Origin: an uncultured Ruminococcus sp.
GTDB lineage: Bacteria; Bacillota; Clostridia; Oscillospirales; Ruminococcaceae
NCBI GenBank assembly: GCA_902786975.1
Contig: CADAES010000017.1
Location: forward strand, 7,998-71,997
Reading direction: 5' to 3'
Length of the DNA: 64,000 nucleotides
Below, piece after piece: positions 6,069 to 53,405 of the stretch (the first letter of the stretch is position 1; every line of letters begins with the position of its first letter). Below the pieces are notes generated by a model, which had not been told where the DNA came from, did no database searches, and saw only the letters and a list, made by a program, of their open reading frames with translations. A program made the position numbers and the translations under genes.

Positions 6069-7085
6069 CTATTTCGCCTCCTTGTTAATAAGCTTCAGAT
6101 CGAGCATTATCTCGCCTGCGATGTTTTCAAGGCTCATCTGCCGTCTGACGCTGCCGTTTTCAAAGGCAGCTCTCGGCATTCCGTAGACAACGCTGCTCGC
6201 CTCGTCCTGCCCGATAGTATAGCTTCCCATCTTCTTCATATTCAGAAGCCCCGTCGCACCGTCTGCGCCCATTCCCGTAAGGATAACTCCGACAGCCTTG
6301 TTTTTTCCGCAGTAAGCCACCGAATCGAACAGCACGTTTACCGACGGACAGTGACCCGATACCCTGACGCCTGCTTCAGAGGTGACAAAGTAGCCTTCGT
6401 TGTCGTGGAACACTCTGAGGTGCTCACCGCCCTTTGCGATAACGACCATATTGTTTTTCAGATACAGACCGCTTTTTGCCTCGGTCACATCGAACCGTGT
6501 CGTCTTATTGAGCTGGTCTGCATATATCTGCGTGTAGGTCTCGGGCATATGCAGCACCGCAACTATGGGCGGGACATCTCCCGTGAGCTTTTCCAGTATC
6601 ACAGGCAAAGCCTGCGTGCTGCCCGTTGAACCGCCGATAGCGACTATACAGCCCTGATCACGCCTTATCAGCGCTTCCTTCAGCTTCTGCTCTCCTGCGG
6701 TCTTTCTGAGAAGCCTGTTAAGGCTCTCGCAGATCCTCGAAGAAAACCTTTCGGCGTCCTCGTGCGGCTTCATTATAACATCCATCGCACCCGCATTCAT
6801 AAAGCCGTAGTTTGAATTGTGCGAAACGGTGCAGACTATCAGCGGACGGTAGTATTTCGGCATGAGCTTTCGGATATACTCACAAACATCTTCCTTGCTG
6901 CCACGGTCGCCGTCGAGTATTATAACATCGGGCTTGTACATCTTTACCGCAGCCGCACCCTGGTCGAAAATACAGCTTTCGATAGTAAGCTCTGCCGAAG
7001 ACACCTTTTCCGTCATCTTCCTTATCCCGAAGGAGAAGTTCCTGTCATCTGCAATTATAAGTATCCTACCGTTTTCCCTGATCAT
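6069..7085 (-). CDS. cheB: protein-glutamate methylesterase CheB
   Basis: N-terminal receiver plus esterase motifs GGSTGS, HMP and GMGADG. Confidence 0.9.
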   Translation of the reverse strand: MIRENGRILIIADDRNFSFGIRKMTEKVSSAELTIESCIFDQGAAAVKMYKPDVIILDGDRGSKEDVCEYIRKLMPKYYRPLIVCTVSHNSNYGFMNAGAMDVIMKPHEDAERFSSRICESLNRLLRKTAGEQKLKEALIRRDQGCIVAIGGSTGSTQALPVILEKLTGDVPPIVAVLHMPETYTQIYADQLNKTTRFDVTEAKSGLYLKNNMVVIAKGGEHLRVFHDNEGYFVTSEAGVRVSGHCPSVNVLFDSVAYCGKNKAVGVILTGMGADGATGLLNMKKMGSYTIGQDEASSVVYGMPRAAFENGSVRRQMSLENIAGEIMLDLKLINKEAK

Positions 7086-8075: not shown

Positions 8076-8230
8076 AGGATATTCTCTTAGTGAGAGTTTT
8101 CTCTCAAACTCTCCTCCCAAACTTTTACTACTTTTTCGTTATTGGGGTCGCAGACCCCAATGGCGAAAAAGAAATAAGAGGTTTAGGAAGGGGGTTCGGG
8201 GGAGAACCCTTCTCTAAAAGGGTTTCCCCC
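8076..8230 (+). repeat. structured dispersed repeat, three-hairpin module (family A, copy 1)
   Basis: About 125 nt nearly identical to 35241-35363; divergent copy at 10948-11099. The long hairpin at 8131-8171 has G-T wobbles on the plus strand only. Confidence 0.65.
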
Positions 8231-8261
8231 GGTAATACTCCAAAAGGGTTTGCCCTAAAAA

Positions 8262-10811
8262 TCAACCCTTTGCGTCATACCAGCTATGGCCGCTGTGGAC
8301 GTCTGCGGTAAAGGGAACGGCGAGTTTAACGGCGTTCTCCATTTCCTCTTTGAGGAGCTTTTCAGCCTTTTCCCTGTCCGCCTCGGCGACCTCGAGTATC
8401 AGCTCGTCGTGTACCTGGAGTATCAGCCTTGCGTCGAGCTTTTCCTCGTTTATCCTGTTATAGACATTGACCATAGCCTTTTTGATGATATCCGCAGCAG
8501 CGCCCTGGATGGGTGCGTTCATTGCGGCTCTTTTTCCGAAAGCCTGGAGATTCTTGTTGGAAGCGTTCAGCTCGGGGATATATCTTCTTCTGCCGAAAAT
8601 AGTCGTAACATAGCCGTTTTTGATGCCGTCGCTGACTGTCTTGTCCATAAACTCCGAGACCTTTGGGTAGTTGGCAAGGTAGTTCGCAATATACTGCTTT
8701 GCCTCTTTGACACTAACGCCGATGTCCTTTGACAGCGAGAATGCCCCGATGCCATAGATTATCCCGAAGTTCACTGCCTTAGCCGCACGCCTCATATCGT
8801 CGTCTACAAAGTCCTCGGGCAGACCGAACACCTGCGCCGCAGTCATCCGGTGAATGTCCGTCCCGCTAAGGAACGCACCCTGCATATTCTCGTCGCCGCA
8901 TACACACGAAAGCACTCTCAGCTCTATCTGCGAGTAGTCCGCATCGACAAGCACACAGCCGTCCTTTGCAACAAAGAACTTGCGCATGTTCCTGCCTATC
9001 TCCTTGCGGACAGGAATGTTCTGCATATTCGGCTCGGTCGATGATATGCGCCCCGTCCTCGTCTCGGTCTGCTTGAATACCGAGTGTACACGCCCGTCAG
9101 AGCCTATCTGCTTGAGCAGTCCCTCAACGTACGTCGAGTCGAGCTTCGTCAGCGTGCGGTATTCCAGTATCAGCGGTATTATCGGGTGCTTGTCCTCCAG
9201 AGCCTCCAGCACCTCCGCACCTGTGGAGTATCCGCTTTTGGTCTTTTTCTTCGCAGGCAGCCCCAGCTTTTCAAAGAGTATAGCTCCGAGCTGTTTTGTC
9301 GAGGCGATGTTGAACTCCTCGCCCGCATAGCCGTATATCTGCTGCGTAAGCTCGTCTATCTTCTTTTTAAGGTCGCTTCCAAACGCACGGATACCGTCCG
9401 CGTCTGCCTTAACGCCGTAAAACTCCATCGAGGCGAGCACCTCGCAAAGCGGAAGCTCTATCTCGCTGTAAAGCTTGGTCATCTGTGTTTGCTCCAGCTG
9501 TCTGCCGAGGTTTTCACACAGTGCGGGAAGGCTCGCTATATCGGCGTTTTCACCGCAGTCCGAACGGTATGTCACCTTGTAGGAAAGACACAGGTTCTCC
9601 ACCGTGTAATCGCTTGACTGCGAGTTGAGAAGATACCCCGCAAGGTCGCAGCAGAACACCACAGCATTCACCCTCACGCCGTTTTCAAATGCAAACAGGT
9701 GCAGACTCTTGCCCTCAAATGCGAATTTCTCACAGCTGCTCTGAACGAAGCGAACGATAAGCCCGCTGTCGTCCGTGACACAGACCGTATCACCGCAGAT
9801 GACCTTGAGGATACCGCCTTTGTATTCAAAGCCGACTCTCTTTGCATTTTCAAACTCCGTGATATCCGATGCTTCCATAGCCTTTTCGGCAATTTTCGGA
9901 AGGTCGGAAAGGCTGACCTTTTTCTCAGGCTCGGCAGGTGTCTCCCCCGCCGCACCGCTGAGCTCCAGCCTCTGCATGAGCCTGAACATCTCCAGGCCTG
10001 CCAGAAGCTCTCTGGTCTTTTCCCTGTCGCCGCCCGTGAGCCTGTAATGCTCAATTTGCGTGTCTATCGGCACTTCAAGGAATATCTCGGCGAGGAAACG
10101 GCTGTCCAGAGCGTCCTGGTGTCCGCCCTCGAGCTTCGCCCGAACAGACGGTGTCAGCTTCATCTCGCCCAGCATCTCGTACAGCCCGTCAACGCTTCCC
10201 GCCTGCTGTATAAGGCTGTAAGCAGTCTTTTCACCGATGCCCTTTATGCCCTTGATGTTGTCGGAGCTGTCGCCCATAAGCGCCTTTACTTCTATCATCT
10301 GACGGGGCTTGACACCGTATTCCTCCATAATGCGCTGCGGAGTGTAGATCTTTGTTTCCTTTGTCCCCGCAAGACGCACCGTCACGCTGTCGGATACCAG
10401 CTGAAAGCTGTCCCTGTCGCCTGTCAGTATAAAGCATTCGTTCCCGCTGTCAGTGCAAGCCTTTGAAAGCGTGCCGAGAATGTCGTCCGCCTCGTAGCCC
10501 TCGCACTCGACCGTCCTGATGCCCATATCGGTCAGAAGCTCTTTTATAACCGGCATCTGCTGGGCAAGCTCGTCGGGCATACCCTTGCGGTTGGCTTTGT
10601 AGTCTGAGTTTGCCTTGTGGCGGAAGGTCGGCGCTTTGAGGTCAAAAGCCACAGCAGCGCAGTCGGGCTGCACCTGTGATATCTCTTTGAGGTAGATGTT
10701 CATAAAGCCTGTTATGGCGTTGGTGAATTGCCCCTTTGAGTTCGCAAGCGCCTTTATGCCGTAAAAGGCTCTGTTCATTATGCTGTTTCCGTCTATCGCA
10801 AGTAATTTCAT
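8262..10811 (-). CDS. polA: DNA polymerase I
   Basis: 849 aa with a 5'-3' exonuclease N-terminus and pol A family motifs (DYSQIELR, QVHDEL). Confidence 0.97.
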   Translation of the reverse strand: MKLLAIDGNSIMNRAFYGIKALANSKGQFTNAITGFMNIYLKEISQVQPDCAAVAFDLKAPTFRHKANSDYKANRKGMPDELAQQMPVIKELLTDMGIRTVECEGYEADDILGTLSKACTDSGNECFILTGDRDSFQLVSDSVTVRLAGTKETKIYTPQRIMEEYGVKPRQMIEVKALMGDSSDNIKGIKGIGEKTAYSLIQQAGSVDGLYEMLGEMKLTPSVRAKLEGGHQDALDSRFLAEIFLEVPIDTQIEHYRLTGGDREKTRELLAGLEMFRLMQRLELSGAAGETPAEPEKKVSLSDLPKIAEKAMEASDITEFENAKRVGFEYKGGILKVICGDTVCVTDDSGLIVRFVQSSCEKFAFEGKSLHLFAFENGVRVNAVVFCCDLAGYLLNSQSSDYTVENLCLSYKVTYRSDCGENADIASLPALCENLGRQLEQTQMTKLYSEIELPLCEVLASMEFYGVKADADGIRAFGSDLKKKIDELTQQIYGYAGEEFNIASTKQLGAILFEKLGLPAKKKTKSGYSTGAEVLEALEDKHPIIPLILEYRTLTKLDSTYVEGLLKQIGSDGRVHSVFKQTETRTGRISSTEPNMQNIPVRKEIGRNMRKFFVAKDGCVLVDADYSQIELRVLSCVCGDENMQGAFLSGTDIHRMTAAQVFGLPEDFVDDDMRRAAKAVNFGIIYGIGAFSLSKDIGVSVKEAKQYIANYLANYPKVSEFMDKTVSDGIKNGYVTTIFGRRRYIPELNASNKNLQAFGKRAAMNAPIQGAAADIIKKAMVNVYNRINEEKLDARLILQVHDELILEVAEADREKAEKLLKEEMENAVKLAVPFTADVHSGHSWYDAKG

Positions 10812-10947
10812 TGTTAGCTCCTTAGATGTAAGATTTAAGCCGCTGGAAGCAAGAACGCTTCGCTTTCAGAGGCAAGAGACAAGATGCTTGCCGCAGCGCA
10901 TCTGTGGGTTTTGAAAGCCTTGAACCGCCTGTCCGTAAGATAATTGT

Positions 10948-11099
10948 GAGTATCCTCTTGAAAGAGATGTTCTCTGACTCTCTCTTTAAACCTTACTCAT
11001 TTTTCGGCATCAGGGGTTTATCCCCTGTTGCCGAAAAATCAATAAAAGTTTTAGGAAAGGGGTTTGGGGAACAACCCTTTTTCAAAAGGGTTTTCCCCA
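10948..11099 (+). repeat. structured dispersed repeat (family A, divergent copy 3)
   Basis: Same three-hairpin order as 8076-8230, with compensatory stem changes (AGAGA/TCTCT; CGGCAtCAGGGG/CCCCTGtTGCCG). Confidence 0.55.
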
Positions 11100-11120
11100 A
11101 CTATCATCCGAACAAACTGT

Positions 11121-12131
11121 TCAAAGATTTTCAAGGCTCAGCGTTGCCACTGCATTCAGGCTCATATCCGCACGCTTGCCGGCGAGGCAGTCGTAATACC
11201 CCTGGCAGGCGATCATTGCACCGTTGTCGCCGCAGTACTTTAGCTCGGGCAGGTACAGCTTGTACCCACGCTTTTCACACTCGGCGGCTATCTTCTCACG
11301 CACGCCCGAGTTCGCCGAAACGCCGCCCGCTACGGCGATAGTGTTGTAGCCAAGATTCTGCGCCGCAAGCATCAGCTTTTGAGAAAGAATCTCCGCTATC
11401 GTCCGCTGGAACGATGCCGCCATATCCTCACGGTTTATCTCTACGCCCTTTTGCTGTGAGTTGTGAACAAGGTTTATCACCGCCGTTTTCAGCCCCGAGA
11501 ACGAGAAATCGTACTCGCTTCCCTGTACCTTCGGGTGCGGCAGCTCAAACGCATTCGGGTCGCCGGCCTTTGCCGCAGCGTCGATAAACTTTCCGCCCGG
11601 GTACTCGTAGCCCAGCGTCCTTGCGACCTTGTCAAAGCATTCCCCTGCCGCATCGTCACGGGTACGCCCGACAACACGGTACTTTGTGTAGTCAAGCACC
11701 TCAACGATGTGCGAGTGCCCGCCCGAGACGACCAGACACAGGTACGGAGGTTTCAGCTCACTGTGCGAGATGTAATTTGTCGCAATATGCCCCGCAATAT
11801 GGTGAACGGGAACAAGCGGCTTTTTGGTGCTCATCGCAAGCCCCTTTGCATAGCTCACTCCCACAAGCAGCGCTCCGATAAGCCCGGGGGCATAGGTCAC
11901 CGCAATAGCATCTATGTCGTCAAGCGTGCAGCCTGCGGCTTCAAGAGCCTGTGAAACAACACGGTCGATGTTCTCGGCGTGGCGGCGTGAGGCTATCTCG
12001 GGAACTACCCCGCCGTAAAGCCTGTGCTCATCTATCTGGCTCGCAACTATGTTTGAAAGCACCGTTTTGCCGTCCTCTACCACCGAGCAGGCGGTCTCAT
12101 CGCATGAGCTTTCTATTCCAAGTATCTTCAT
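11121..12131 (-). CDS. tsaD: tRNA N6-adenosine threonylcarbamoyltransferase
   Basis: Start set at the conserved MKILGIESSCDET N-terminus, 25 codons inside the track ORF. HxxxH metal motif (VHHIAGH). Confidence 0.95.
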   Translation of the reverse strand: MKILGIESSCDETACSVVEDGKTVLSNIVASQIDEHRLYGGVVPEIASRRHAENIDRVVSQALEAAGCTLDDIDAIAVTYAPGLIGALLVGVSYAKGLAMSTKKPLVPVHHIAGHIATNYISHSELKPPYLCLVVSGGHSHIVEVLDYTKYRVVGRTRDDAAGECFDKVARTLGYEYPGGKFIDAAAKAGDPNAFELPHPKVQGSEYDFSFSGLKTAVINLVHNSQQKGVEINREDMAASFQRTIAEILSQKLMLAAQNLGYNTIAVAGGVSANSGVREKIAAECEKRGYKLYLPELKYCGDNGAMIACQGYYDCLAGKRADMSLNAVATLSLENL

Positions 12132-12230
12132 TTTTATCAGTCCTAACACAAATATTGTAGACCCCGACCATACAGGTTTCGGGTCAAGCCGTTTATGGCT
12201 CATCATTCAACGGGCTCTTTGGCATTTTCG

Positions 12231-12291
12231 GGGGCTTTCCGATCGCCCCCAAAGCGTCCGTCAGTACGGGTTGCCCCATTTGGGTACAAAT
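12231..12291. repeat. short dispersed intergenic repeats (family B copy plus GGGGGC...GCCCCC hairpin)
   Basis: gggggctttccgatcgccccc is the inverted form of 38932-38952. The rest matches 7967-8013. Confidence 0.5.
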
Positions 12292-12356
12292 ACTTTTATA
12301 GTTCGTATTGATTTATTCGGCATAAAAAATCACACATCAGAATTCTGAACTGTCTT

Positions 12357-13082
12357 CTATCCGTTAATCTCTGCCGTGTATATCTTCTGCATTTCTTCGG
12401 AGATGCCGCCGTCAGCAGAGCGCACATACAGCGGCTTTTCTATCTGTATAAAGTTGTTGCCGCCTTTTCTTCCCTCGACCAGTATCAGCCACGGCTGACA
12501 TTCGGGGTTTTTGTGCACCGTCCGCAGACGCTTGGGCTCGATGCCGTTTGCACGCATCGCCGTAACGATATCGCTGAGGCGCTCGGGTCTGTTGCAAAGA
12601 CACAATCGCCCGCCGAAGCGCAGGTTTTTCGCCGCCGCTTTGCAAACGTCGTCCACCGTGCACTCTATCTCGTGGCGTGCGATGGACACCGCCTCGCTGT
12701 CGTTTTTAGCACCCGTTCCGCTTATCTTGTAGGGCGGGTTGCAGGTTATAACGTCCAGCGGCTCGGGACTTTTCCACTCCTTAAGGTCGCCCAGCACCGC
12801 AAAGGTGTTTTCCTGTGCGCCCGAATGTTGGATAGACAGCTTCAGCTGCTCGTAGGCTTTTTCCTGCAGTTCAACGGCGTACAGCTTTTGGGGCTGGAAA
12901 TTCCGCCGCATTATCATAGCTATTATACCGCAGCCCGTGCAGAAGTCGCACACAACGTCCTTGTGCCTGGGGCGTGTGAAATCGGCAAGCAGAAAAGCGT
13001 CCGTGCCGAAGCGGTGCTCGCTTGAAATGCAGATCTTGTAGCCCCTGCCCAAGTCCTCAAATGTAAAATCGTTATAGACCAT
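12357..13082 (-). CDS. SAM-dependent methyltransferase, tRNA1(Val) m6A37 (YfiC/TrmN6)-like
   Basis: 241 aa with the NPPY motif (CNPPYK) and a small-methyltransferase fold. Confidence 0.75.
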   Translation of the reverse strand: MVYNDFTFEDLGRGYKICISSEHRFGTDAFLLADFTRPRHKDVVCDFCTGCGIIAMIMRRNFQPQKLYAVELQEKAYEQLKLSIQHSGAQENTFAVLGDLKEWKSPEPLDVITCNPPYKISGTGAKNDSEAVSIARHEIECTVDDVCKAAAKNLRFGGRLCLCNRPERLSDIVTAMRANGIEPKRLRTVHKNPECQPWLILVEGRKGGNNFIQIEKPLYVRSADGGISEEMQKIYTAEING

Positions 13083-50006: not shown

Positions 50007-50039
50007 AACACATACCGTGTGGTACGCTAAATAATAACC

Positions 50040-50247
50040 GCCTTGCCGTCGCACAGTTGATAAAACCCGCTCTCGCAGGTGGGTACCAGCCCAATGACTT
50101 CTCGCTCCCAACGTCCGGATACACACGGCACAAAGTCGGCGTGCACCGGGAGGTCTGCAATCCGTTTCTCGGAGACCCGGTTCCCTTTTAATTGTGTGTT
50201 GGATTTATAATGACCGTGCTCAACGCACAAGGCAGAAATCTTTTTCT
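50040..50247 (-). ncRNA. structured RNA with a cobalamin-riboswitch-like core; class unverified
   Basis: In order on the minus strand: AAUUAAAAGGGAA, a CCGGG...CCCGG hairpin, CGCCGACU, GGGAGCG, AAGUCA...ACCUGC. A long 5'/3' closing rod. No RBS-led ORF. Confidence 0.45.
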
Positions 50248-50365: not shown

Positions 50366-50743
50366 TCAGCTGAAATGCTTACCGTCACAGTCCGCATCGC
50401 CGCAGCCGCATTCCTCATCGTCGTCGTATTCAAACATCTCCTCGATGCGCTTCATGAACATATCGCCGATCCTTTCGTACTCGTCATCGTCGTCGATAGA
50501 AGCAAGTATCTCGTCGTTGTTCTCGTCAAACTCGGATTTGAGTATAACGACCTCGCCGCAGTCATCAAGCATCTTGTCAAGCTCCTGCTCGTCATAGTAC
50601 GGTGTGAGCGCATAATACTTCTCACCCTCGAATTCCATAACATCAAGAAGCTCAAAGCTCTGCTTATCGCCGTTCTCGTCCTCAAGCTCGTAAAGATCGG
50701 GTGTGTAATCCTCATTCATTTCGATCTCATTGTCCTTGCTCAC
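50366..50743 (-). CDS. DUF1292 family protein
   Basis: 125 aa, very acidic, with the typical core ELEDENGDKQSFELLDVMEFEGEKYYAL. Confidence 0.85.
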   Translation of the reverse strand: MSKDNEIEMNEDYTPDLYELEDENGDKQSFELLDVMEFEGEKYYALTPYYDEQELDKMLDDCGEVVILKSEFDENNDEILASIDDDDEYERIGDMFMKRIEEMFEYDDDEECGCGDADCDGKHFS

Positions 50744-50967
50744 CGTAGTTTCCCCCTTATCTCAAAAAATGTGATATGTTTTAACATATCACCCGGGTCA
50801 TCCCCTCAATGACTTCAATATAAACCAAAACGGCTAAACAAAAGGCTTTTCACGCCAAATTGCCCGCCGCAACAATATTATTATACTACATTATAAAAGG
50901 AATGTCAAGGCTTCTATTGTAAAAGTAATATTAAATATAAAATATGCAAAAAAGTTGAGAAAAACTA

Positions 50968-50996
50968 TTGACAAGTAACAAAAAGTGTGATATATT
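50968..50996 (+). promoter_or_regulatory. near-consensus sigma-A promoter of the long non-coding unit
   Basis: TTGACA, 17-nt spacer, TGaTATATT, with an AT-rich UP-like region upstream. Confidence 0.7.
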
Positions 50997-51460
50997 ATAT
51001 TCAAGAAAACAAGAACCGAACAGTTCACTTGAACGTGAAGCTGAACGGCAGCGAAAATACACAGCATCAGCGCAGATGCCTGCACCTTTCGCAGCACGGT
51101 TCCGAGGATGTCAGATGCCGCATATGCGGTGGTGCCAGCAATCGGACGGCTCGAGTTTTTGAGATCACGGGTCAGAACGGAAATAAGTGAACGCACTGCA
51201 ATACATGCACGATCCCCAACAAGCAGCGAAGTACTCCGGGAGATCTAAACTGACACGAAAGGAGCGAGTCCCATGGGCGTACTGGATATCAAGAGCGGTA
51301 GCCATAGGCTCGGCAGTTTCGACAATTAAGAGGATCAGGACACGGACATACGGGCCGTCAGATCTCAACAGTATGATTTACATAAACGAACTGCCTTGTC
51401 TTATGGAAAACGGAATTACTTATGAATCTTTACAGCAAGGCTACCATATATAATTGAATA

Positions 51461-52312
51461 TCAAGTCCGGTTTGGACACCGGCACACTATATTACATTTT
51501 AGGATTGGAGTTGTTTCCGATGCACGCTTCGGATCATTTTGACGAGAAAGAAATATCATGATAGAGTGAGTCCAATGTAATATCGTGTTTTTTCATCAAA
51601 CTTTAAATATATCTTATAAATATTTTTGGAGTGATGCGCTATGAAAATAGCAAACACCAGGTTCCTGAACATTTGAATCTAAGGAGTGAGTCCACCAAGA
51701 TATTTACGAGTTTGAAGCTCTTTTCAAAATAAGTTTCTGAACATATTTCTATGACGGGAGTGGTGCATATGATCTGCACATGCACAAAACGTTTGAATAT
51801 TTGACAGACAGGAGTGAGTCCGCCGGAAAGTTCAGCTTTTACCTGAAATTCAGGTAGTATGATTTGATTTGAAATAAACCGAAAGGAAATTGATCCAATG
51901 GCTCTATAAACTGCGTTTTTACGCACAGTACGAATTTTTACTTACGGTCAAAAAACTTTTACCATTGTGGCCAGACTTCAAATTTTGAGAGGTAATAAAT
52001 CCGATGGGTTAAATATTTTTAATATCAGATATTCAACATCATGGCGGAAATTGATCCGACAAAGTTGATGTCTGTGAGCACAAAATTTAATGAAGGGCGT
52101 GAGTCCAAAGTACTATTTAACTTGAATTCGACTTTATAGTTATATATCTTTTGAAGGGACTGAGTCCAAAATTCTGTTTTAAATGATGGATGGCAAGCAG
52201 GGGCTTGTCTATATGGACCAATTTAATTCTACGAAAGGTGTAAAGTCCAATGGCTTAATTCAATTTCAAACCAACTATCTTATTTGAATTGGAGTGAGTT
52301 GCGATGTGCTAA
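51461..52312 (+). repeat. array of about 13 degenerate units (period 50-105 nt) with core aAGGAGTGAGTCCaATG
   Basis: Cores at 51505, 51563, 51626, 51681, 51756, 51809, 51881, 51987, 52044, 52092, 52153, 52233 and 52289. An upstream A/T-rich TTTGAAYATTTGA-like box is often present. Confidence 0.7.
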
Positions 52313-52349
52313 CTAAATAGTACATATGCAAAAAAATATTGATATATAC

Positions 52350-52383
52350 GAGAGCAGCAGTGTTTGCTGCTCTCTTTATTTTT
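52350..52383 (+). terminator. strong intrinsic terminator
   Basis: Perfect 10-bp stem GAGAGCAGCA/TGCTGCTCTC followed by TTTATTTTT. Confidence 0.85.
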
Positions 52384-52397
52384 GTGTCTGAACCTAT

Positions 52398-52427
52398 AAC
52401 AAAAAGAGCTGCCGTTTTGCGGGCAGC
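52398..52427 (-). terminator. intrinsic terminator of the aldo/keto reductase gene
   Basis: GCTGCC/GGCAGC stem followed by UCUUUUUGUU on the minus strand. Confidence 0.6.
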
Positions 52428-52436
52428 CCTTTGTGT

Positions 52437-53405
52437 TCAGATCCTGTTTTCGAGAAATGCTACGGTCTTTGCGTCGTATCTGAGGTCCTGTGCGGACATA
52501 TCCTCCTCTATCTGCCACGTTCTCGATGCGGCAAACACAGACGTTACAAAAAACGGCTGGCTCGAAAGATATCCGATAGGTATCATTGCCGGTGAATCGC
52601 CAGTCTGGCGGCTCAGCTCCTTCACCCTCGCAAGTCTTGCAAGGTTAGCTGTGCTGGCATATTGTCCCTCGGGGAGATACTGTGCGGTGTCGCCCTTTGC
52701 AAGTCTTGCAAAGAAGCCCTTGGCCTGCGGCGAGAACGCCATAAGCGGGAAATTGTTGCTGCTGTACCACCGGAATTCCTTAGTGTCCATACATACCAGC
52801 GTCGGGTCGCCGAGTATGCTTGAGCTTGCGTGTGCAAGGCTGTAATATATCTGGCTTATCCTTATCGGCTCAAGTCCGTTCTTGTTCGCAAAATCATTGG
52901 CTGCCTGTATCCTTTCGCAGCTCCAGTTTGAAACGCCGATAAAATGCGCCTTTCCGCTTTGGTAGATATCGTTGAGCACAGGCATTATCTCCTCGACCGG
53001 GACACGGACATCGTCTCTGTGCAGGAAGAATATATCGACGTGGTCGGTGCCGAGACATTCAAGGCTGTCGCTGATATCCTTTTCAAGGTCTTCCCTGCTC
53101 AGACGATTCTCGTCCATATGACCCATTGCGGGATGTCCGCCCTTGGTCGCAAGGACGATCTTGTCACGGTTGTTCCTTGCTTTCATCCAGCGTCCGATAA
53201 CGCCTTCGCTGGAATTGTGCCCGTCCTCCAGCCAGTCGCAGTACACCCTCGCAGTGTCGATGCACCAGCCGCCGTTGTTGATATATGTATCCAGTAGTTC
53301 AAAATATACTTCGTCGTTGTCGTGCCTTTTGAAATCTCCCGTACCGAAAGTCAGTGCGGGAAGCTTTATTTCATATTTGTCGTTTTTAAGTGTATAGCTT
53401 ATCAT
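52437..53405 (-). CDS. aldo/keto reductase
   Basis: 322 aa AKR fold (DTARVY...LATKGG...GVSNW). Confidence 0.9.
   Translation of the reverse strand: MISYTLKNDKYEIKLPALTFGTGDFKRHDNDEVYFELLDTYINNGGWCIDTARVYCDWLEDGHNSSEGVIGRWMKARNNRDKIVLATKGGHPAMGHMDENRLSREDLEKDISDSLECLGTDHVDIFFLHRDDVRVPVEEIMPVLNDIYQSGKAHFIGVSNWSCERIQAANDFANKNGLEPIRISQIYYSLAHASSSILGDPTLVCMDTKEFRWYSSNNFPLMAFSPQAKGFFARLAKGDTAQYLPEGQYASTANLARLARVKELSRQTGDSPAMIPIGYLSSQPFFVTSVFAASRTWQIEEDMSAQDLRYDAKTVAFLENRI

Follow-up and report, generated by a model that had tools for sequence, protein, structure and literature searches.

A conserved RNA gene of rumen and gut Ruminococcus carries an ordered array of putative translation initiation modules

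In a 64,000-nucleotide stretch of an uncultured Ruminococcus sp. genome (contig CADAES010000017.1; the window), the interval between the minus-strand genes for a DUF1292 protein and an aldo/keto reductase (AKR) carries a stand-alone RNA gene of about 1.4 kb, read from the plus strand. Its 3' part holds an ordered chain of modules built around strong Shine-Dalgarno (SD) sequences, and this RNA is a new family whose architecture could be matched to no described system. From its sequence and that of its relatives we consider it most likely that the RNA is heavily engaged by ribosomes and is not a purely structural noncoding RNA (ncRNA). Our leading proposal, to which we give somewhat less than an even chance, is that it would act by ribosome loading and not through a protein product.

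The interval extends from 50744 to 52436 (1,693 bp). A preliminary description, made from the letters of the window, had stated that these roughly 1.7 kb contain no credible open reading frame (ORF). That is correct for long frames, as there are just overlapping ones of 43-101 amino acids, and it does not hold for the conserved micro-ORFs presented below. Gene callers placed no gene in the interval in 10 rumen metagenome contigs that are 96-100% identical to it. The unit is delimited by the first two of the following signals:

50968-50996, plus strand: sigma-A type promoter, TTGACA, 17-nt spacer and TG-n-TATATT (extended -10), with an A-tract upstream
52350-52383, plus strand: intrinsic terminator, GAGAGCAGC/GCTGCTCTC plus TTTATTTTT, a 9-11-bp GC-rich stem with a U-run
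52432-52403, minus strand: the reductase gene's own terminator

These signals had been noticed before and were borne out by the analysis. The promoter is near-consensus, with 11 of 12 positions matching in addition to the upstream TG, and the transcription start site would lie near 51003. The terminator is the most stable perfect-stem terminator of the whole window (-16.9 kcal/mol), and the separate minus-strand terminator of the reductase gene was recovered as well. The abrupt change in composition that had been placed near 51460 is also present, the GC content being 0.50-0.53 at 51000-51400 and 0.34-0.36 at 51400-52300, with the drop near 51400-51460. The segment just before the RNA terminator (52314-52347) repeats two pieces of the promoter region, 50932-50953 with 86% and 50980-50995 with 81% identity, and this promoter-like repeat is kept in nine close relatives.

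Homologs of the DUF1292 protein pointed to rumen and gut Ruminococcus, and a scan of one genome per species gave 80 loci. By blastn, seven species have full-length homologs of the unit (74-90% identity) and about 40 others have core matches; each of these lies upstream of DUF1292 and on the opposite strand. The preliminary description had asked for a synteny check, and in at least 52 species-representative genomes the whole unit indeed adjoins DUF1292. Fifty-two elements of 926-1,923 nt could be delimited by promoter core and terminator. The promoter core TTGAC-N-TGTGnTATAnT occurs in 54 of the 81 upstream regions searched and the promoter is unchanged across a nine-sequence alignment of close relatives, while the terminator stem shows compensatory G-C to A-U and A-U to G-C changes in relatives. 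Among the closest relatives, the 3' array is better conserved than the 5' part. A second search, which used a 17-specified-base RNA motif alone and no protein anchor, detected about 60 further elements in gut, rumen and fermentation metagenomes; DUF1292 is at most 1.5 kb away in 37 of the 39 motif-found elements with enough flanking sequence. The remaining motif matches lacked an array and serve as a negative control; since the three viral matches are among them, a phage or mobile origin was rejected. Two contigs of a single metagenome-assembled genome (RGIG6565), L086 and L087 in our numbering of loci, each carry DUF1292 and the element, which is either a duplication or a redundancy of assembly or binning. 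The element is also present in isolates, for example Ruminococcus sp. FC2018 (L015), Marseille-P6503 (L050) and Ruminococcaceae bacterium FB2012 (L065); YE71 (L052) showed just a weak, partial match, which is not among the delimited elements. Judged by the invariant promoter, the covarying terminator and the homologs in 52 species and about 60 metagenome contigs, the unit is a real conserved gene, and we infer that it is expressed as one transcription unit.

The 3' part of the unit had been described as repeat-rich, which is accurate as far as it goes: it contains 14 copies of a GG-N3-8-(GA)(G)TCC motif, and these form an ordered array and not plain repeats. GAGTCC occurs six times in the region compared with five times in the other 62.6 kb of the plus strand, and it is absent from the minus strand of the region. 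The consensus of the repeated GG-N-(GA)GUCC motif, AGGAGUGAGUCC-R-AUG-G, resembles the complement of the 3' tail of 16S rRNA, which was assumed to be standard (GGAUCACCUCCUUUCU). We divided the window's RNA into 14 initiation modules, a to n, all on the plus strand; an SD sequence with no start codon is called an orphan:

51257-51329, plus strand: module a, SD GAAAGGAGCGAGUCC, ATG at 51273, 18-codon frame (MGVLDIKSGSHRLGSFDN, stop)
51507-51561, plus strand: module b, SD GGAGUUGUUUCC, ATG at 51520, 13 codons (MHASDHFDEKEIS, stop)
51563-51580, plus strand: module c, SD AGAGUGAGUCC, then an ATG-TAA start-stop
51628-51676, plus strand: module d, SD GGAGUGAUGC, ATG at 51641, 11 codons (MKIANTRFLNI, stop)
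51683-51693, plus strand: module e, orphan SD GGAGUGAGUCC, 6 nt past the stop of d; invariant in the nine-sequence alignment
51756-51804, plus strand: module f, SD GGGAGUGGUGC, ATG at 51769, 11 codons (MICTCTKRLNI, stop); paralog of d
51811-51821, plus strand: module g, orphan SD GGAGUGAGUCC, 6 nt past the stop of f
51885-51909, plus strand: module h, SD GGAAAUUGAUCC, then ATG GCT CTA TAA (MAL-stop; MA-stop in relatives)
51991-52012, plus strand: module i, SD (GAGA)GGUAAUAAAUCC, then ATG GGT TAA (MG-stop; MA-stop in relatives)
52046-52057, plus strand: module j, orphan SD GGAAAUUGAUCC, an exact repeat of that of h
52095-52106, plus strand: module k, orphan SD GGGCGUGAGUCC; invariant in the nine-sequence alignment
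52156-52167, plus strand: module l, orphan SD GGGACUGAGUCC
52237-52258, plus strand: module m, SD GGUGUAAAGUCC, then ATG GCT TAA (MA-stop); invariant in the nine relatives
52291-52312, plus strand: module n, SD GGAGUGAGUUGC, then ATG TGC TAA (MC-stop; elsewhere MY-stop, MH-stop or MN-stop)

Forty-three species have the SD-ATG pair of module a, and the frame that it opens comprises 10-18 codons. At the position of module c, other species have a bare start-stop or three-codon ORFs (MRT-stop, MEL-stop). Module d comprises 11 codons in all nine relatives, with synonymous ATT/ATC and TTG/TTA exchanges and a change of the stop from TGA to TAA, and the stop of module n, the last module in most species, changes from TAA to TGA in locus L019. 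Other species, for example at locus L047, have ATG-bearing GGUGAGUCC modules (start-stop or MA-stop) in the 3' array, for which orthology to module k is not established. In the window, the ORFs that stop after no or one sense codon are c, i, m and n, to which h with two sense codons can be added; across the 52 species the median is three such minigene or start-stop ORFs per element (range 1-10). In all species, distant relatives included, the ORF classes succeed one another as they do in the window:

First: 16-18 codons
Second: 8-13 codons, in distant species after a 10-11-codon frame
Third: a start-stop or three-codon ORF
Fourth: one to four ORFs of 10-12 codons, each with a start-less SD 6-8 nt later
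Fifth: a run of 2-3-codon ORFs (MA-stop, MG-stop, ME-stop, MV-stop), with MY-stop or MC-stop as the last

The orphan SD after the 10-12-codon ORFs is present in most species. Ahead of module b, TTGAATATCAAG at 51452-51463 resembles a decayed 'LNI' C-terminus of the 10-11-codon ORF (MIRFSRFLNIS or MRIFITRLNII) that distant species carry at this place, the window's clade having lost its SD, ATG and stop. A TTGACG-17-TAGAGT sequence at 51539 was rejected as an internal promoter, since it is not conserved in distant species.

Counted over the 52 elements, strong SD+ATG sites number 9.6 per element on the sense strand; the corresponding figures are 0.21 for the antisense strand and 3.2 for shuffles, and there were none downstream of chance matches to the 17-specified-base motif elsewhere. 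An element has a median of 13 modules and 8-23 motif repeats; the modules are about 57 nt apart, a spacing that leaves room for a ribosome on every one of them. Module SDs are as strong as those of ordinary genes or stronger (median -12 kcal/mol). The SD of module h forms a duplex of -16.6 kcal/mol with the 16S tail, and the strongest SD of all, AAAGGAUGUGAUCC, is complementary to the assumed tail at 13 of 14 positions (-19 kcal/mol). GCU is the commonest second codon (45 of 93); it belongs to a codon class for which enrichment in highly expressed genes has been reported (PMC1397820).

Further evidence comes from ORF lengths and stop codons. In the 52 elements, ORF length peaks at 2, 11, 3, 10, 12 and 1 codons, and just 2% of the SD-led ORFs exceed 19 codons, compared with 20-24% in controls. 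A stop follows within three codons at 63% of the [TA]CC-N-ATG sites and at 21.5% of SD-less ATGs (Fisher P = 1e-29). The triplet after ATG-NNN is TAA 54 times, TAG 30 times, TGA 28 times and TGG not once, where 15.6 TGG would be expected if T-purine-purine alone were selected (P = 2e-7). The three stops thus interchange while TGG is absent, so that selection appears to act on the stop codons as such, by way of stop function, a translation-level property. The case for translation comes mainly from such constraints on start, stop and length, and in part from conservation of peptides. The proposal of a dedicated long ncRNA gene therefore stands in so far as the gene is stand-alone, syntenic and equipped with its own promoter and terminator, and the epithet 'non-coding' is at most half correct in view of the modules of SD, ATG and early stop, the selected stops and ORF lengths and a C-terminal [RK]xLNI peptide motif written in synonymous codons. 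As for a conserved protein-coding frame in homologs, which the preliminary description had named as grounds for giving up its view, no long one was found, nor any protein homology, although no translated homology search of the 43-101-amino-acid ORFs was made. With no gene called, so few SD-led ORFs above 19 codons and a 5' domain that keeps base pairs and not codons, the unit does not have the properties of a protein-coding gene or pseudogene. DNA-level repeats, iterons or a CRISPR-like array were rejected because the element is strictly strand-asymmetric, has a promoter and a terminator and bears the signature of selected stops. A likeness of GAGUCC to tRNA T-arms, GNRA mini-hairpins or the 16S h44 region was dropped as unsupported.

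The modules are embedded in predicted RNA structure, which is most elaborate in the 5' part:

51005-51482, plus strand: folded 5' domain, about 50% GC, predicted with RNAalifold
51021-51043, plus strand: 5'-proximal hairpin, CAGUUCAC / GUGAAGCUG, predicted with RNAalifold
51332-51365, plus strand: best-supported hairpin of the 5' domain, GAUC.GGACACGGAC...GCCGUCAG.AUC, 43 species

For the nine sequences RNAalifold gives 104 predicted pairs, of which 20 show two-sided changes, and long-range helices at 51169-73/51242-46, 51297-303/51439-45, 51312-19/51388-95 and 51109-12/51134-37. In the 5'-proximal hairpin a U-A pair is replaced by C-G in three of the nine sequences and the remaining pairs are invariant. 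Covariation was tested in 43 species with a structure consisting of the hairpin at 51332-51365 and two flanking helices. In this structure 93.4% of the cells are paired, compared with 25-43% when the partners are slid, and double-change cells number 86 as opposed to 29 +/- 7 in shuffles (0 of 500 reached this value). All 86 sit in the two helices of the hairpin, which are 87-91% paired. The 43 species also keep the helix CGAGUC/GGCUCG (51265-70/51307-12), and GGCUCG of module a has two mutually exclusive pairings. The earlier characterization of the 5' part as helix-rich thus gains support from covariation in homologs and none from folding energy, which on either strand is no better than that of shuffles (z = +0.23 at 51000-51470); folding energy alone is therefore uninformative here.

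In the 3' array, predicted helices join the neighbouring modules b and c, m and n, d and e, and f and g. Module c lies in the 3' arm of a helix (51493-508/51567-82) with one compensatory pair, U.G becoming A-U in four of nine sequences, and a U-run follows the b-c stem-loop. For the ORF of module m with its 3' flank (52252-65), the predicted pairing partner is the SD of module n (52287-300); the changes in this helix are one-sided only. In module f, the hairpin GUGCAU/AUGCAC (51763-68/51780-85) places the AUG in the loop.

Of the explanations considered, a ribosome-engaging RNA accounts for the largest number of features, namely the strong SDs, the favoured GCU second codon, the near-immediate stops, the orphan SDs past stops and the helices between modules. 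In the mechanism that we propose, the strong promoter would drive a transcript that is probably abundant, whose 5' third is the conserved multi-helix domain and whose 3' two-thirds are a chain of stem-loop units carrying the initiation modules. Each module would offer a strong SD followed by an ATG with a stop within 1-3 codons, by a 10-12-codon [RK]xLNI frame or by no start codon, and would capture a 30S or 70S ribosome, with start and stop almost at once. A single RNA could in this way hold about ten ribosomes at a small cost in amino acids, and binding at one module might melt the helix that masks the next, resulting in sequential unmasking. The most likely physiological role would be to serve the translation machinery as a decoy, a parking site or a sensor, comparable to the role of the neighbouring 6S RNA for RNA polymerase. 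A more specific version, which we regard as doubtful, is a dedicated 'ribosome decoy' of Ruminococcus and relatives, a counterpart of 6S RNA in translation: an abundant transcript whose start-stop minigenes would serve to park, titrate or test-drive some ten ribosomes at once, and which would set the free-ribosome pool or check new 30S subunits and be genetically coupled to a DUF1292-6S operon.

Several observations speak against ribosome loading as the function. Local unpaired probabilities at 465 SD-ATG sites showed the SDs to be no more accessible than background, and conserved helices contain several of the SDs or AUGs. The element [TA]CC occupies positions -4 to -2 in 56% of the modules and in 0 of 69 ordinary gene starts, so that a plain model of a good ribosome-binding site is insufficient; this element might be bound by a protein or by another RNA. 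No codon periodicity is seen in the frame of module a, whose conservation is explained by RNA pairing, and in the 10-12-codon ORFs the middle residues ('CT' or 'MH') come from one hairpin arm, AUGCAC, in differing reading frames. A pure sponge would have no need of a conserved C-terminal peptide motif, ribosome titration by an abundant RNA would be costly, and the counts given above treat related species as independent.

The peptide motif is the starting point of another explanation, that the RNA is a polycistronic micropeptide mRNA in which the 10-12-residue and perhaps the 16-18-residue peptides are functional and the tiny ORFs and orphan SDs tune ribosome flow. The 10-12-codon ORFs occur in all species with two to five paralogous copies per RNA, their length is fixed and they end in [RK]xLNI-stop. 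In this motif Leu (TTG/CTT/CTG/TTA), Asn (AAT/AAC) and Ile (ATT/ATC) are each written with synonymous codons, each of the three stops is in use, and the paralogs d and f encode Arg, Leu and Asn by different codons. Variability rises over codon positions 1 to 3 (1.26, 1.48 and 1.68), and the arrangement would resemble that of Drosophila pri/tal. However, about half of the modules are incapable of giving a peptide, having 1-3 codons or no start, and yet their order is kept and their stops are selected; the N-terminal and middle residues are free to vary or coincide with a hairpin in different frames; and most of the synonymous exchanges are T/C transitions, a kind of change that RNA pairing would allow as well. 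No export signal was found, and no partner or modifying enzyme is encoded nearby. Two further frames were rejected as peptides: ORF a, which has no periodicity, whose apparent synonymous changes are compensatory base pairs and whose codons 9-16 lie in covarying helices, and ORF b, whose frame is shifted in L019 while its nucleotides are invariant. We consider a micropeptide mRNA unlikely.

Alternatively, the 10-12-codon ORFs could be leader or arrest peptides of the erm, cat or tnaC type in a translation-sensing switch, where drug-, metabolite- or release-factor-dependent stalls refold the RNA and the output is the stability of the RNA itself, 3' extension, a surface acting in trans or a change in how active the divergent DUF1292-6S promoter is. 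The concentration of conservation in the last three to five residues before the stop fits this idea, as do the conserved SD 6-8 nt past each such stop and the length of the ORFs, which is similar to that of known arrest leaders. The ORFs overlap predicted helices in which ORF bodies are paired with downstream SDs; the two exclusive pairings of GGCUCG and the U-run after the b-c stem-loop also fit. Against such a switch, the many two-codon ORFs cannot sense through a nascent chain, and we know of no arrest motif that is recognisable in the 10-12-codon ORFs. A leader-attenuator should have a regulated gene downstream; here a strong terminator is followed by the convergent AKR gene, which is not conserved in this position and is replaced by a different gene in L050 and L065. 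A sensing switch appears quite improbable.

In the least probable explanation, which we regard as very unlikely, the RNA is an untranslated sponge whose GG...GAGUCC repeats bind a CsrA-like protein, the DUF1292 protein or another RNA, and the ATGs and stops are incidental mimicry of target initiation regions after the manner of CsrB or RsmZ: the multiple GGA-containing repeats in one RNA, the element-specific [TA]CC, the AAAGGAG in the predicted hairpin loop of module a and the tight linkage to DUF1292 favour it, and it leaves unexplained the in-frame stop selection with its missing TGG, the scarcity of ORFs above 19 codons and the fixed 10-12-codon frames. No motif-bearing target mRNAs are present within the window, where no ordinary gene start shows GG...[TA]CC-N-ATG, and the DUF1292 protein is very acidic, with no RNA-binding fold recognised (it has no solved relative, and its model has a pLDDT of 72.5).

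No known family accounts for the RNA. As the preliminary description had suggested, the window was compared with all Rfam models (Rfam 15). At the gathering threshold the sole match was the 6S RNA at 50031-50241, which lies outside the interval; at E<=10 the best match in the region 50700-52500 had E = 0.4, far below gathering; and ten homologous loci from other species gave just 6S and one tRNA at gathering. In the absence of a family match the RNA is not OLE, GOLLD, ROOL or raiA. It is similar to these and to HEARO in its size of about 1-1.6 kb, its own promoter and terminator, its covarying helices and a narrow taxonomic range, and like ROOL it is of rumen or gut origin. In contrast, those RNAs have ornate folds without arrays of initiation sites, and their covariance models did not match. 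No description of such an element was found in Rfam or in the open-access literature, which was searched on minigene arrays, ribosome sponges, large RNAs of Ruminococcus and motifs associated with DUF1292.

In E. coli, start-stop sites are bound by ribosomes both in vitro and in vivo, and no product can arise from them (bioRxiv 10.1101/520783). Those found by retapamulin profiling, such as yecJ and hslR, have a start codon directly followed by a stop and preceded by an SD-like sequence, but they are single sites, out of frame inside protein genes and with a weak local effect, whereas the new RNA has 3-10 sites arrayed on a dedicated transcript in an order conserved across species. The lambda bar minigenes are two-codon ORFs that act by translation itself, through peptidyl-tRNA drop-off, and not by their product; they are single phage sites and toxic only when peptidyl-tRNA hydrolase is limiting. 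The array shares with both systems an SD, a start and a stop after no or one sense codon, and with bar the build of SD, AUG, one sense codon and stop. It differs from bar in being chromosomal, outside any phage context and with GCU as the main second codon. The orphan modules e, g, j, k and l are comparable to STAB-SD of Bacillus thuringiensis cryIIIA, a start-less SD that binds 30S subunits, and to other 5' stabilisers of this kind. STAB-SD, however, is one site near the 5' end of a protein-encoding mRNA, while the orphan SDs of the new RNA are internal, multiple and 6-8 nt past stops.

CsrB and RsmZ are sponges with GGA hairpin loops 15-30 nt apart and no constraint on starts or stops, and 6S RNA is a decoy of RNA polymerase that mimics an open promoter. 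All are stand-alone RNAs from promoter to terminator in which motif copies mimic the natural target of a cellular machine. In the new RNA the mimic would be the translation initiation region, apparently used for real initiation. GGA or GGAG is present in most of its modules, with no consistent hairpin apart from the loop of module a, and the selection on stops and ORF lengths sets it apart from a translation-independent sponge. The dual-function RNAs RNAIII/hld, SR1/SR1P and SgrS/SgrT have one ORF of 26-43 codons, and Drosophila pri/tal is a polycistronic RNA for several 11-residue peptides. With them the new RNA has in common a folded RNA with very short frames and, for pri/tal, several 11-codon paralogs on one transcript; the bacterial examples are without a series of 1-3-codon ORFs and orphan SDs. 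Each of the systems compared shares single features, and none is an ordered, conserved minigene array on its own transcript.

The neighbourhood of the gene comprises the following features:

50031-50241, minus strand: 6S RNA (RF00013, 59.6 bits), directly downstream of DUF1292 on the same strand
50366-50743, minus strand: DUF1292 gene, flanking the interval on one side and not part of the RNA gene's transcript
50908-50880, minus strand: DUF1292 promoter, a perfect TTGACA-17-TATAAT divergent from the RNA gene
52437-53405, minus strand: AKR gene, flanking the interval on the other side and convergent to the RNA gene
About 6400-6700 of the loci L015, L018, L030, L050 and L065, plus strand: 6S RNA

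The 6S RNA gene is about 700 bp from the new RNA gene and lies 3' of DUF1292 in the window and in five of the ten other species tested; DUF1292 and 6S may be one operon that is divergent from the new RNA. In the 5' leader of DUF1292, just upstream of its ribosome-binding site, a terminator-like hairpin (GTGATATGTTAAAACATATCAC and a T-run, 50792-50771, minus strand) could act as an attenuator. The DUF1292 protein is extremely acidic with a Cys-rich tail (CGCGDADCDGKHFS). Its AlphaFold model shows a small beta-sheet plus helix fold without a Foldseek match in the PDB at E < 0.5 (best E = 0.5); no sequence relative of solved structure (best E = 0.16) and no NCBIfam model were found, and no function is given in the literature searched. 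In L001-L010, from rumen Ruminococcus, two adjoining serpin genes and a Methyltransf_21 gene follow Spo0A (about 8200-12378 of the locus); serpins are uncommon in bacteria.

If the proposed ribosome loading is correct, this would be a bacterial RNA class in which the work is done by translation initiation sites from which no product arises. Its target would be the ribosome pool, as RNA polymerase is that of 6S and CsrA that of CsrB. Such a class would have implications for the buffering or storage of ribosomes in cells and would give a natural function to start-stop and two-codon ORFs, so far known only as isolated curiosities. The element also calls for caution in annotation, as it is invisible to gene callers and ncRNA models alike. 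Whatever its role, be it that of a micropeptide mRNA or a sensor, it represents a large and conserved RNA family, so far unannotated, among the major fibre degraders of rumen and human gut, tightly linked to DUF1292/YrzB, a protein family of unknown function, and to 6S RNA.

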